Of a stretch of DNA of 64,000 nt, positions 12,001-27,000 are shown one piece after another. Numbering within the stretch: position 1 is the stretch's first letter; the number at the start of each line of letters is the position of its first letter. The stretch lies in assembly GCF_016026235.1 (NCBI RefSeq), contig NZ_CP065614.1. One strand, 5' to 3'. The DNA is from Escherichia coli (GTDB lineage Bacteria > Pseudomonadota > Gammaproteobacteria > Enterobacterales > Enterobacteriaceae). The position numbers were made by a program.

Positions 12001-15000
12001 GTATTCTGTTGTCCGTCACTCATGGAGAAGTAAATCCGTGGGCCGTGGTAGTCCGGCGAAGAGGTTAATCTTTGCAGGGCTTGCAGAGCATGGGATGATA
12101 ATGGGTTATCACTAATATGTATTGAACATTCATTCCTCAGATTAAGAATGCTTTCCGGGATATGACTTATCTGATTTCTATCAAAAAAATACTCTCTGAC
12201 AACGGGATTATTTCCCTCAGAAAATGCTGGTAGCTCAGTGAGGAAATTACGGGTCGCTCTGAGATTTTTAAGAGCCTGTGGGAGCGATGGTAAGGAGACT
12301 ATTTCGTTATAGCTGATATTCATAGTCAATAACGAATCGGGTAAAGCTGGCAGGTTTTCCAGCTCATTGTGTTGTACCTGAAGTGACTCCAGCGCAGGAG
12401 GTAGCACGGGCAATTCTGATAATTTATTGCTGGCGGAATATAATTTTTTTAGCGTAACAGGCAGTTCAGGTAGGTTAGTTAATTGATTATATGATACATT
12501 GAGCAGCGTTATCTGAGCTGGTAAGTTGTCAGGTAGCGAGGACAGATTTAAACGGTCCAGTCGAAGTTCATCGGAATTATTGATAAGACATTCTTTAAGT
12601 CGGGAGACAGCCTCATCACGCTCTTCACCGGGGAGCGCTTGTTTTTCCCATTTATCCCATGCTGAAAAGTAATCAGCATATGTACCGGAAATAGTGTTAT
12701 AAAAAGAATTTTGGGGCAATGAAAAGTTATTATTTATCGGTAACATGATGGGCATCCAGTTAAAGCCGGTGGACAAATGGCTTTGTTAAAAGAAATAAGT
12801 AGGAGTTTTTATGAAGTTCATTCCATGAAATGAACTTCAGCACTTTTTTATTATAATAAGGATAAACAAAATTGGCTGTAAAAAAACGATACTGTTTCAG
12901 TTAACCGTGAATGGCCTGTTTGCACCGTATTGTTCTTGTTTTTCGGTTAGTTAAACATCGTACTTCATATTTGAACGGTAAGCGGCTCGTCAGAACCGTA
13001 TTGATATTTACTGAGAGGTCAGATCAACTTTCCAGGGCAACAGATCGCGTACCCGGTTTGCCGGCCAGTCCTGGATATGCTCAATGACGTAACGCAGCCA
13101 TTTTGTCAACGCCACGATTTTTGACCCTAGCCTGACATTTATATTCCCCAGAACATCAGGTTAATGGCGTTTTTGATGTCATTTTCGCGGTGGCTGAGAT
13201 CAGCCACTTCTTCCCCGATAACGAAGATCGGCACACTGGCCATATCAGTGGTCATCATGCGCCAGCTTTCATCCCCGACATGCACCACCGGGTAAAGCTC
13301 ACGGGAGACTTTATCTGACAGCAGGCGGGCACTGGCCAGGGGGATCACCATCCGTCGTCCGGGCGTGTCAATAATGTCACTCTGTACATCCACAAACAGA
13401 CGATAACGACTCTCTCTTTTATAGGCGTAAACCTTAAACTGCATTTCACCAGTCCCTGTTCTCATCGGCAAAAGAGCCGTTCATTTCAATAAAACGGGCG
13501 ATCTCAGCCATCCCCTGCTGATTTTCAGCCTGCCAGCGTTCCGCACGCAGACGGCGGGCCTCTTTTTGCATGGCCGTATTTACCAGGCCTGAGATATTCA
13601 CGTTTGCGGATTTAAGTAACTGATAGCTGTCACTGTCTATAGTGACAGTAATACGCTGCTTCATGATAAGCCCTCAAAAACATACTTATGATATGTATAT
13701 GAGTATATATTAATGGTACAAAACATCAATATCCATAAAAAGTGAACCACGGCAGCCTGGCGGCTGCAAATCGGGGTGTGGCAGAATATGAGCTTTCAGA
13801 GTAACCATCCAGAATGAGTTCCCATGTCACACAACCTGGAGCACCAGAAAGTCCACACCAGAATGGTGAAAGTGAACCGCCCCAAGTTTCCTGGAGAATG
13901 TTTTATCTGTGAACTCAGGCTGCCAGATCATCGTTTCCGATAGAAGCATAATAAGCTTTTTCTGCTTCTGCCGGAGGGATGTGGCCCAGCCTTTCCAGCA
14001 ATCGTCGATTATTATACCAGTCCACCCACGTGAGTGTGGCCAGTTCCACTTCTGCACGGTTTTTCCAGCTCTTACGGTGTATTACCTCCGCTTTGTAAAG
14101 ACCATTGATGCTCTCCGCCATCGCGTTGTCATACGAGTCGCCTGTACTTCCTGTTGATGCCAGTAATCCGGCTTCCTTAAGCCGCTGTGTGTAGGCCAGC
14201 GATACATACTGAGAACCTTTATCACTGTGATGGACCGTGCCGGACGGTCGACGGGCCCATAACGCCTGCTCCAGTGCATCCAGCACGAATGTCGTTTCCA
14301 TGGACGATGAGACCCGCCACCCCACGATGTATCCGGCAAACACATCAATGATGAACGCCACATAGACGAAGCCCTGCCATGTGCTGACGTAAGTAAAATC
14401 AGCCACCCACAGCTGGTCAGGTCGTTCTGCCACGAACTGACGGTTTACGCGGTCGCCTGCGGCAACGGCTTTCCGGCTGACGGTAGTGTGGACCTTTTTA
14501 CCCCGGAGAACACCGGCAAGTCCCATAACCGCCATGAGACGTGCCACAGTGCATCTGGCCACTCTGATACCTTCCCGTAACAACTGACGCCAGACTTTAC
14601 ACCGTATACCTTGTGATTTTCATCGTATACGTGCTGTATCTCTTTCTTCAGCCAGTCATCGCGCTGCGCACGGGCACTGCGTTTATCCGGATGATGTCGC
14701 TGTTGCTGACAGTGGTAATACGTTGACGGGGCAATATGCAGTTCGCTGCATAGCGGTCCGACCCCGTACTGCTCACGCAGCTTATCCAGCAGTGGCATCA
14801 TTTTTTCCAGAGGCGGTCGAACTCCGCCTTCGCAAAATAAGCGGAAGCCTGGCGAAGGATATCGTTACTGCGGCGCAGTTCACGATTTTCACGCTCCAGC
14901 TCTTTCAGACGCTGACGTTCAGCGGTGGTGAGCCCTCCATCACCGCCCCCGGTATCCCGCTCATGCTGGCGAACCCAGACACGCAGAGTCTCCGGCGTAC

Positions 15001-24000: not shown

Positions 24001-27000
24001 CTGGCTCGAATACGGTGGTGCGGCTGAGAGTCGCAGAGGGGAAGTTGCGTCCATGTTGAGGGGAACGGAGCAAAAAACCATCAGAGATACATTGAATCAA
24101 TCAATGTAAGCAATATTAAGTGTCTATACCGATTACTTGATGATCAGGTTGTGTTGAATAAACGCGCATTCTTCGGTGCTTTTTTAATCTTTTGGGGATT
24201 TAAATTCCTATCGATGGACATGAATGCAGGCTATATAAGAGCAGCGCGCATCCACTTACCCAATGCGGTTGAGAAAATAGCCTTCGATCGCTTTCATGTG
24301 GCGAAACAACCGGGTGAGGTGGTGGATAAAACCCGCCAGAATGAACCGCCCCGGGTTTCCTGGAGAGTGTTTTATCTGTGAACTCAGGCTGCCAGATCAT
24401 CGTTTCCGATGGAAGCATAATAAGCTTTTTCTGCTTCTGCCGGAGGAGTATGGCCCAGCCTTTCCAGCAATCGTCGATTGTTATACCAGTCCACCCACGT
24501 GAGTGTGGCCAGTTCCACTTCTGCACGGTTTTTCCAGCTCTTACGGTGTATTACCTCCGCTTTGTAAAGACCATTGATGCTCTCCGCCATCGCGTTGTCA
24601 TACGAGTCGCCTGTACTTCCTGTTGATGCCAGTAATCCGGCTTCCTTAAGCCGCTGTGTGTAGGCCAGCGATACATACTGAGAACCTTTATCACTGTGAT
24701 GGACCGTGCCGGACGGTCGACGGGCCCATAACGCCTGCTCCAGTGCATCCAGCACGAATGTCGTTTCCATGGACGATGAGACCCGCCACCCCACGATGTA
24801 TCCGGCAAACACATCAATGATGAACGCCACATAGACGAAGCCCTGCCATGTGCTGACGTAAGTAAAATCAGCCACCCACAGCTGGTCAGGTCGTTCTGCC
24901 ACGAACTGACGGTTTACGCGGTCGCCTGCGGCAACGGCTTTCCGGCTGATGGTCGTACGGACCTTTTTACCCCGGAGAACACCGGCAAGTCCCATAACCG
25001 CCATGAGACGTGCCACAGTGCATCTGGCCACTCTGATACCTTCCCGTAACAACTGACGCCAGACTTTACACCGTATACCTTGTGATTTTCATCGTATACG
25101 CGCTGTATCTCTTTCTTCAGCCAGTCATCGCGCTGCGCACGGGCACTGCGTTTATCCGGATGATGTCGCTGTTGCTGACAGTGGTAATACGTTGACGGGG
25201 CAATATGCAGTTCGCTGCATAGCGGTCCGACCCCGTACTGCTCACGCAGCTTATTCAGCAGTGGCATCATTTTTTCCAGAGGCGGTCGAACTCCGCCTTC
25301 GCAAAATAAGCGGAAGCCTGGCGAAGGATATCGTTACTGCGGCGCAGTTCACGATTTTCACGCTCCAGCTCTTTCAGACGCTGACGTTCAGCGGTGGTGA
25401 GCCCTCCATCACCGCCCCCGGTATCCCGCTCATGCTGGCGAACCCAGACACGCAGAGTCTCCGGCGTACAGCCAATCTTTGGAGCAATGGAACAAATTGT
25501 CGCCCATTGTGAGTCATATTCGCCCTGACTTTCCAGAACCATACGGACTGCCCGTTGACGGACTTCGGGGGAAAAACGAGTATTTTTAGTCATCCTGTTT
25601 ACCTCTTTCTCAGGAAGTTTAGTCTCCAGGATTCCCGGGGCGGTTCAGAATGAACATCCGCATCTTCCTGTTGAAAGTCGTCGTCAGGCAAAGGGAACTC
25701 GCTTCCTGTGGCAGCACAGCGATAAATGGATGACCGAATCCAGGCAGGAAAAGCTGATATGGCTGCGTGCGCAGATGAAGCTGACGAGCCTGTGCTGGGC
25801 GCTGAAAGAACTGGCAAAGGATATCTGGAGCAGACCATGGAGCGAGGAAAGACCGCAACGACTGGCAGAGATGGCTGTCGCTGGCGGCCAACAGTGACGT
25901 CCCCATGATGAAGAATGTGGCTAAAACGATAGGGAAAAGGTTGTACGGTATCCTGAACGCCATGCGCCATGGCGTATCAAACGGAAATGCGGAAGCACTG
26001 AACAGCAAGATCAGGCTGCTGAGAATAAAAGCCAAGGGCTACCGCAACCGGGAGCGCTTTAAGCTGGGAGTGATGTTCCACTATGGGAAACTGAATATGG
26101 CGTTCTAAGCCTTCCCACCATGATCGGGGAAGACCCAGATATGAACAGGCACATTCAGAGTTACTTTAAAGAGCTTACTGAACGTCTGAGGTGTTAGAGC
26201 CATGACTGCCGCAGCATTGCTGGCGGAAATGCCTGAATCGAGCAGCCTCTCGAGACGTGAAATCAGCGCACTTGTCGGTGTTGCTCAGGTAAATCGGGAC
26301 TCGGGAACTCTGCGCGGTCGACGAACCATTTTCGGTGATTGTGCTGGGGAAGAACAGCTCGGTAATGACTCCAACTTACTGATAGTGTTTTATGTTCAGA
26401 TAATGCCCGATGACCTTGTCATGCAGCTCCACCGATTTTGAGAACGACAGTGACTTCCGTCCCAGCCTTGCCAGATGTTGTCTCAGATTCAGATTATGTC
26501 GCTCAATGCGCTGAGTGTAACGCTTGCTGATAACGTGCAGCTTTCCCTTCAGGCGTGATTCATACAGCGGCCAGCCATCCGTCATCCATACCACGACCTC
26601 AAAGGCCGACAGCAGGCTCAGAAGACGCTCCAGTGTGGCCAGAGTGCGTTCACCGAAGACGTGCGCCACAACCGTCCTCCGTATCCTGTCATACGCGTAA
26701 AACAGCCAGCGCTGACGTGATTTAGCACCGACGTAGCCCCACTGTTCGTCCATTTCAGCGCAGACAATCACATCACTGCCCGGTTGTATGCGCGAGGTTA
26801 CCGACTGCGGCCTGAGTTTTTTAAGTGACGTAAAACCGTGTTGAGGCCAACGCCCATAATGCGTGCACTGGCGCGACATCCGACGCCATTCATGGCCATA
26901 TCAATGATTTTCTGGTGCGTACCGGGCTGAGAGGCGGTGTAAGTGAACTGTAGTTGCCATGTTTTACGGCAATGAGAGCAGATATAGCGCTGATGTCCGG

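Follow-up and report, generated by a model that had tools for sequence, protein, structure and literature searches.

Gene conversion among IS629 copies is suggested by a lesion shared across the icsA-virA region of the Shigella and enteroinvasive Escherichia coli invasion plasmid

Introduction

Pairs of co-oriented insertion sequence (IS) copies have been shown experimentally to delete segments of the invasion plasmid (pINV) of Shigella and enteroinvasive Escherichia coli (EIEC), and toxin-antitoxin loci protect the DNA adjacent to them (PMC8923223). The published pairs considered here consist of copies of IS1294, ISSfl4, IS600, IS21, or IS1 (PMC5629016; PMC8923223). The full text of the main paper on pINV plasticity mentions neither IS629 nor icsA nor virA (PMC5629016), and elsewhere IS629 appears only as a copy count, with five copies on pWR100 (PMC8923223). 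Here, a stretch of 64,000 nucleotides from E. coli (contig NZ_CP065614.1), referred to as the window, is analyzed, in which two copies of IS629, termed A and B, lie on either side of the virulence genes icsA and virA and carry an identical 4-bp deletion in their transposase gene orfB.

Gene conversion reportedly maintains non-functional IS copies (Cordaux 2009, Mol Biol Evol, as cited in PMC3205602). Conversion among defective IS copies and IS-pair deletion on pINV are both established ideas, and the locus described here is compared with each of them. On the Shigella/EIEC invasion plasmid, copies A and B represent old and fixed insertions of IS629 that are non-autonomous. Their allele distribution and mosaic structure suggest that the shared lesion reflects gene conversion among IS629 copies and no recent parent-daughter transposition, where the mechanism and its direction are what we infer from comparison of sequences.

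Results

Copies A and B Are Near-Identical and Lack the Same Four Bases

Direct reading of the window and its comparison with itself place copy A at 13873-15178 and copy B at 24342-25647. Both are 1306 bp long, co-oriented, and have their transposase genes on the minus strand; their starts are 10,469 bp apart and 9,163 bp separate them. A preliminary description of this DNA had listed the two co-oriented copies with the same boundaries except for the end of copy A, which in fact lies one base further, at 15178 and not at 15177, where the sequence reads ...GGCGGTTCA. In a gapless alignment, A and B differ by 14 substitutions and no indel (98.9% identity), and two 1.3-kb repeats at such a level of identity are far beyond chance. 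The 1310-bp IS629 of LC567824, a Stx2 phage record with a mobile_element annotation comprising orfA and orfB, served as canonical reference. Over its full length (nt 1-1310) copy A is 98.5% and copy B 99.4% identical to it, both above the threshold of at least 95%, with 16 substitutions in A and 4 in B, and each copy in addition lacks 4 bp.

These four bases are the GTGC at IS629 nt 579-582, situated between two GT dinucleotides and deleted in both copies, at 14600/14601 in A and at 25069/25070 in B. The preliminary description had claimed that orfB is split at the same point in both copies, and the alignment agrees, as it reveals the same lesion in each and no substantial divergence between them. 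The orfB frame is lost after codon ~68, which leaves open reading frames (ORFs) of 118 and 222 amino acids matching positions 93-153 and 159-369, respectively, of the IS3 transposase profile in different frames. In copy A the 5' fragment occupies 14445-14801 and the 3' fragment, which holds the catalytic core severed from the N-terminal part, 13915-14583, and in copy B the corresponding fragments are located at 24914-25270 and 24384-25052, all on the minus strand. Because the deletion breaks orfB upstream of the catalytic domain, A and B are unable to make the full OrfAB transposase, for which an intact orfB is required.

Other parts of the element have been preserved. The orfA gene (14798-15124 in A and 25267-25593 in B, minus strand) is intact and encodes an OrfA of 108 amino acids identical to the canonical protein, followed by the A-run overlap with orfB. 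The ALIL frameshift pseudoknot, at 14727-14843 in copy A, is detected by Rfam as intact in all three IS629 copies of the window (117-121 bits), the third being a partial copy C described below. The terminal inverted repeats, which begin with TGAACCGCCCCGGG, are canonical at both ends of B and at the left inverted repeat (IRL) of A. The outer or right inverted repeat (IRR) of A (13873-13912) reads TGAACCGCCCCAAGTTTCCTGGAGAATG, compared with the canonical ...CCCCGGGTTTCCTGGAGAGTG, and thus contains a GG>AA and a G>A change, with the terminal 11 bp kept.

The Insertions Are Old and the Lesion Varies at Both Sites

The region belongs to a Shigella/EIEC invasion plasmid. Rightwards from 13872 the window is collinear with the EIEC plasmid NZ_CP065612 at 99.9% identity, and it is 99.1-99.6% identical to plasmids of S. 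flexneri, S. sonnei, S. boydii, and S. dysenteriae; in nearly all of these the match begins exactly at the left end of copy A. For a comparison among 17 invasion plasmids, i.e., the window and the orthologous region of 16 others, all IS629 copies, their flanks, and the state of the lesion were scored. All surveyed plasmids are collinear across the region, and site A (...ctgatactgacg-IS-gttcaggctgta) as well as site B (...cgccagaa-IS-gaatgaacat...) is occupied almost everywhere, at the same nucleotide in plasmids of S. flexneri, S. sonnei, S. boydii, S. dysenteriae, and EIEC. Therefore, both insertions predate the divergence of the plasmid lineages. IS629 at site A is already annotated publicly, as 'IS629 ORF1/ORF2' beside ushA in pCP301, and the finding is real but ordinary, the arrangement being old and already annotated biology.

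The lesion behaves differently from the insertions that carry it. Seven plasmids have the 4-bp deletion at both sites (the window, three EIEC plasmids, pWR501, S. flexneri 1a 0439, and S. boydii CIP 56-18) and six at neither (S. sonnei 53G, S. boydii CDC 3083-94, BAA-1247, S. boydii 602068, S. dysenteriae CFSAN029786, and S. dysenteriae 93-119). It is present at B only in S. flexneri 64-5500 and S. dysenteriae ATCC 49346 and at A only in S. sonnei R15.3427, and S. flexneri FDAARGOS_74 has the deletion at B and no copy A. A backbone tree was based on the unique icsA-virA DNA (5413 ungapped columns with 27 informative sites). The lesion state flips between plasmids that display identical informative-site patterns, namely between S. 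sonnei 53G and EIEC O121, between S. dysenteriae ATCC 49346 and CFSAN029786, and between S. boydii 602068 and S. flexneri 64-5500. In a further pair, S. sonnei R15.3427 and 53G, the icsA-virA backbones differ by 2 single-nucleotide polymorphisms (SNPs) in 5744 bp, and the copies A (402-1701 in R15.3427 and 6002-7311 in 53G) differ by the 4-bp deletion, for which 53G is wild-type, by an unrelated 6-bp deletion, and by one SNP.

Beyond these plasmids, the exact deletion junction occurs in 113 PLSDB records, of which the three listed by name are Shigella plasmids, and in 14 of the 5461 matching records among complete E. coli genomes. Those E. coli matches that are listed by name come without exception from human isolates, which mostly have plasmids carrying pINV sequence, and chromosomal sites are among them. 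In pWR501 and S. flexneri 1a 0439 the allele is also found at a third locus. The 4-bp deletion allele appears to be limited to Shigella and EIEC.

Interior Sequences Are Shared Within Plasmids Whereas the 3' End of Copy A Is Locus-Specific

Eight of the substitutions that separate A from B form a 3' signature of copy A (13884-14011; IS nt 1172, 1202-1205, 1241, 1285, and 1298-1299), which includes the GG>AA change in the terminal repeat. This signature is wholly or partly present in every A copy compared, and B copies are generally devoid of it. A table of variable sites shows that, in the interior of the element, clusters of variants are common to A, to B, and even to third copies within one plasmid, as seen for a cluster of six bases in S. 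dysenteriae and for CAA..TA in S. flexneri. For the interior (nt 60-1150), the mean number of differences is 5.6 between A and B of the same plasmid, compared with 8.0 among A copies and 8.9 among B copies of different plasmids. For the last 160 nt the order is reversed, with 7.1 differences between A and B of the same plasmid and 1.7 and 1.9 among A and B copies, respectively. When A and B copies were re-paired at random, none of 20000 re-pairings reached the value observed for the interior, whereas for the last 160 nt pairing had no effect (P = 0.6). In their interiors, paralogues within a plasmid are closer to each other than orthologues are between plasmids, while the locus-specific 3' end is kept, which is the pattern of concerted evolution.

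A trace of a similar exchange may exist within the window itself. Of the six differences that separate A from B in the interior, four fall in a 9-bp patch (14481-14489), which is identical to the inverted copy C, 5.7 kb away (there within 21600-21620), and is present in no other surveyed A or B copy. We read it as a short tract of gene conversion between inverted repeats, in the direction from C to A. As a separate observation, copy C is 98% identical to the canonical element in S. boydii CDC 3083-94 (7456-8199) and BAA-1247 (10153-10896), compared with ~95% elsewhere, suggesting that copy C too may have been converted by other IS629 copies.

The preliminary description had deduced that one of the two copies derives from the other after the lesion arose. 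In that scenario the lesion arose once, and the copy bearing it transposed, with transposase supplied in trans, to generate the other one in a recent duplication. The identical 4-bp deletion and the 98.9% identity of A and B would fit such a parent and daughter, as would the fresh-looking target duplication of B, and defective copies apparently do spread, given that the allele is also found elsewhere, on EIEC chromosomes among other places. However, each major plasmid lineage has IS629 at both sites, with wild-type alleles at both in several of them, and the lesion flips between near-identical backbones. Furthermore, the 8-substitution signature of A, with its inverted-repeat changes, is missing from B, so that B is no copy of present-day A, and if A had been copied from B instead, the wild-type A alleles with the same A signature would still need conversion. 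It is the plasmid, and not the locus, with which interior variants co-vary. A recent parent-daughter relationship is therefore considered unlikely, and the claim of direct descent is not upheld.

No scenario can do without gene conversion or, with lower probability, recurrent mutation. The sharing of interior variants within a plasmid, the locus-specific end of A, and the C-like patch together argue for gene conversion and against a parent-daughter relation. The lesion would then be an allele that circulates among the IS629 copies of Shigella and EIEC and that is spread or removed by homologous gene conversion. Such homogenization within a genome would affect only the interiors, and the ~160 bp beside the unique flank of A would stay locus-specific.

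Flanks of the Copies and Content of the Interval

Copy B is flanked by a direct repeat (gaa-IS-gaa), with the second GAA at 25648-25650, and copy A by unequal trinucleotides (aag-IS-gtt). The gene interrupted by B corresponds to positions 184-370 of 370 of an ISL3-family transposase profile (E = 1e-39) and is itself a 5'-truncated and frameshifted remnant comprising the C-terminal half, with one part to the left of B (24214-24341) and another to the right (25648-26108, internal frameshift near 25890), both on the plus strand. In plasmid pSB4_227 (13181-13345) the same remnant is uninterrupted (…acccgccagaatgaacatcc…) and contains a single GAA, i.e., it represents an empty B site, and thus the GAA duplication of B is real. 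The profile match and this empty site confirm what had been described for B, a gaa duplication inside an ISL3-family transposase gene, and the lack of a duplication at A in the window (aag versus gtt) was also read correctly. Copy B probably arose by simple insertion into the ISL3 transposase remnant, which would have created the 3-bp GAA duplication.

The interval between A and B contains icsA (virG), which codes for an outer-membrane autotransporter of 1102 amino acids (15759-19067, minus strand; annotation transferred from NZ_CP065612, 99.9% identical), the small RNA RnaG, antisense to the 5' region of icsA (19086-19205, plus strand; Rfam RF02550, full-length, 158.5 bits with a gathering score of 153), and virA, coding for 400 amino acids (19596-20798, plus strand). 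They are followed by the partial IS629 copy C (20923-21666, plus strand), which comprises IS nt 1-745, is ~95% identical to the canonical element, is inverted with respect to A and B, and does not have the 4-bp deletion. Mobile-element debris fills the remainder (21667-24213) and consists of IS3-family, group II intron, and IS91-family fragments, among them, between C and B, a group II intron D1-D4 fragment (22497-22615, plus strand; Rfam RF01999, 116.9 bits) and an IS91-family fragment at about 23129-23907.

Since virulence genes are located between copies of one IS, one might think of a composite transposon, in which A-icsA-virA-B entered the plasmid as one unit. A variant of this idea would employ A together with the inverted C, as these two bracket icsA-virA only and have their IRL ends facing inwards, towards the cargo. 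However, the trinucleotides at the two outer ends disagree (aag at A, where the usual context has acg, versus gaa at B), so that no duplication surrounds the whole unit. In addition, B has its own GAA duplication as well as an empty site at which the neighboring DNA is present, which indicates an insertion of B on its own. Copy C is incomplete, with 5% divergence, and a second location of the unit was found in none of the plasmids surveyed. The composite transposon was rejected on the basis of its flanks and is regarded as extremely improbable.

A Deletion of 15.3 kb Ends at the Outer Tip of Copy A

In the usual context, ushA - IS629-A - icsA, copy A is flanked by acg and gtt, and it is without a duplication in every plasmid, so its loss must be ancient. 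Copy A would have lost its duplication, or would never have had one, before the plasmid lineages diverged. In the window, the left neighbor of A is a stub of ISSbo1 (IS91-like; first ~130 bp, 13744-13872) that is cut exactly where copy A starts and that adjoins ccdAB and ipaH9.8. If 15,326 bp are removed from NZ_CP065612, the nearest relative, the resulting sequence aligns with window 9720-15394 without a gap at 99.8% identity. The missing block extends from the interior of ISSbo1 to the first base of IS629-A (13872/13873) and contains the rest of ISSbo1, a relE/parE toxin-antitoxin pair, ospI, IS2, a group II intron, ISEc60, and ushA. The left junction of the window (ccdA-side ISSbo1 plus IS629-A) was found in one piece neither in PLSDB nor among complete E. 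coli genomes.

With the A-specific signature extending to within 11 bp of this junction, it is unlikely that A underwent homologous crossing-over with another IS629 copy. The simplest reading is that a transposition-type adjacent deletion, starting from the outer end of A and using transposase supplied in trans, removed the 15.3 kb and thereby fused A with internal ISSbo1 sequence next to ccdAB. An equivalent route to the same loss might have consisted in the formation of a nearby copy of A followed by recombination. The lack of a duplication at A had initially been ascribed to a past recombination at this copy. This view is upheld in part and in its general sense, as the outer tip of the copy does bear a private rearrangement, the 15,326-bp deletion; the duplication, however, is absent in every plasmid, and a crossover with a different copy is unlikely.

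A donor IS629 inside ISSbo1 that might have crossed over with A was also considered. The candidate, in S. dysenteriae 93-119, is an IS629 in an IS91-family gene, yet it occupies another site and has its own GTT duplication, and as the signature of A also comes so close to the junction, a crossover of this kind was rejected. Independently, in S. boydii 602068 (at 14345), 125 bp corresponding to window 15179-15303 are missing beside the inner (IRL) end of A, a second adjacent deletion at this copy.

Potential for Deletion and Inversion of the icsA-virA Interval

Recombination between co-oriented repeats can delete the intervening segment and cannot invert it. The longest blocks identical between A and B measure 469 and 392 bp, and no toxin-antitoxin locus exists inside the interval, ccdAB being located outside (13139-13664). 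The pair thus combines a common orientation and long identical tracts with the absence of an intervening addiction module, and a RecA-dependent deletion of the 9.2-kb icsA-virA interval through recombination of A with B would be plausible by analogy with other IS pairs. The preliminary description had called the interval deletion- or inversion-prone, of which deletion may stand on this analogy and inversion is wrong, as co-oriented copies cannot invert what lies between them.

Natural losses of both genes have been reported. In S. flexneri 6, icsA/virA were lost stochastically in 2 of 96 isolates (PMC8767353), which is compatible with instability and silent on mechanism. Plasmid pSB4_227 is reported to lack icsA and virA (PMC8767353). 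It was examined as a possible product of recombination between A and B and rejected, as both B flanks are kept at the empty site, with a single GAA and without any IS; the loss of icsA-virA there must therefore have occurred by another route. A search of the literature on IS629-mediated loss of icsA retrieved nothing specific.

Substrates for inversion do exist elsewhere in the region. Copy C is inverted with respect to A and B, and two IS1 copies (9128-9895 and 26361-27128) form an inverted pair of 768 bp that is 100% complementary, has 16,465 nt between its members, and flanks ipaH9.8, ccdAB, IS629-A, icsA, virA, IS629-B, and the ISL3 remnant. For inversion, these IS1 copies are far better suited than the IS629 pair. 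More diverged repeat pairs, presumably IS fragments, also flank the region (7459-7758 / 30326-30625 and 8473-8726 / 30075-30328; 92% direct and 96% inverted).

Discussion

Taken as a whole, the data are probably best explained by old, fixed copies A and B whose lesion is shared through gene conversion, together with an adjacent deletion at A. Several points weigh against this explanation. The shuffling of A-B pairs ignores the kinship among the plasmids. An ancestral deletion at both sites that was later repaired in several lineages fits the allele distribution equally well. As to the rearrangement at A, the 15.3-kb block was lost or may perhaps have been relocated outside the 64-kb window. 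With regard to deletion of the interval, a synthetic junction of the ushA flank, IS629, and the ISL3 flank, i.e., the product expected from recombination of A with B, was covered to at least 80% by no PLSDB record. Sequenced plasmids thus seem to include no example of such a deletion, and because no such product was found, the claim that the interval is prone to deletion rests on analogy.

Two further objections concern the lesion itself. In S. sonnei, no co-converted markers are visible on either side of the 4-bp deletion, so that recurrent slippage between the two GT dinucleotides is possible there. Extended to all copies, this would mean that GT[GTGC]GT is a slippage hotspot at which the 4-bp deletion arose independently in A, in B, and in other copies, in line with its position between 2-bp direct repeats and with the lack of a conversion tract when the copies A of S. 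sonnei R15.3427 and 53G are compared. However, a microhomology of two bases makes a weak hotspot, the presence of the exact junction in only 14 of thousands of E. coli records with IS629-like sequence argues against free recurrence, and substitution clusters that are independent of slippage also co-occur in A and B of one plasmid. The other objection is technical. Several assemblies show 1-bp length differences resembling homopolymer errors, and their IS copies might have been homogenized or mis-polished. Collapse of repeats or polishing with multi-mapped reads could make IS copies alike; several PacBio-era records contain copies of 1309, 1305, or 1304 bp, with single-base gaps typical of homopolymer errors, and older assemblies obtained with mixed technologies may have used a consensus IS sequence. 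Yet the locus-specific 3' signature of A is kept in every assembly, so that copies were not simply collapsed, and mixed lesion states are encountered within single assemblies. Moreover, several independent projects have yielded each of two states, deletion at both sites (in pWR501, the EIEC plasmids, and Sf1a 0439) and deletion at neither (in pBS512_211, BAA-1247, and the S. dysenteriae plasmids). As variants that do not depend on slippage show the same co-variation and no assembly has lost the locus-specific end of A, recurrent slippage is judged very unlikely and an assembly artefact quite unlikely, and gene conversion remains the preferred explanation for the shared lesion.

A speculative possibility is that the IS629 with the 4-bp deletion is more than debris. 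It would still encode OrfA and a truncated OrfAB that retains its DNA-binding part and is without the catalytic domain. One may imagine that deletion-bearing IS629 copies are kept and spread by conversion because these two products damp IS629 transposition in trans and in this way stabilize an IS-laden virulence plasmid, although we regard this as an improbable idea. The allele is apparently limited to Shigella and EIEC, resides at many loci, and has orfA and the frameshift signal intact, which neither supports nor excludes such damping.

In genomes rich in homologous ISs, a lesion shared by two IS copies should not be taken as evidence of recent parent-daughter transposition, and orthologous copies should be compared first. 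The IS629 pair is a reasonable candidate route for the joint loss of icsA and virA, one that would be missed by Congo-red screens and unopposed by addiction systems, which is of relevance for the stability of vaccine strains and for the interpretation of icsA/virA-negative isolates. The plasmid of the window has also lost or relocated the 15.3-kb block that includes ospI and ushA. The current understanding of the invasion plasmid is unchanged by these observations.

Compared with IS629 as known from pWR100, pWR501, and pCP301, from E. coli O157, and from Stx phages, copies A and B have 98.5-99.4% identity, the terminal inverted repeats, orfA, the ALIL element, and the catalytic core in common. 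A target duplication, expected to measure 3-4 bp for IS629, is seen as 3 bp at copy B and is absent at A. In contrast to the known element, A and B comprise 1306 instead of 1310 bp and are non-autonomous with a broken orfB, and A in addition has three substitutions in its outer inverted repeat. As in the IS-pair deletions described for pINV, co-oriented homologous copies flank virulence genes, with no toxin-antitoxin locus inside the interval, and its loss would therefore not trigger post-segregational killing. Unlike here, where the product of recombination between A and B is absent from PLSDB, those deletions were recovered in a Congo-red-negative screen for loss of type III secretion. With conversion among non-functional IS copies, the locus shares the within-genome similarity of defective copies, the mosaic tracts, and the locus-specific ends. 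It differs in that the copies reside on a plasmid of a facultative pathogen and that intact IS629 is also in circulation, and therefore conversion may either spread the lesion or repair it.

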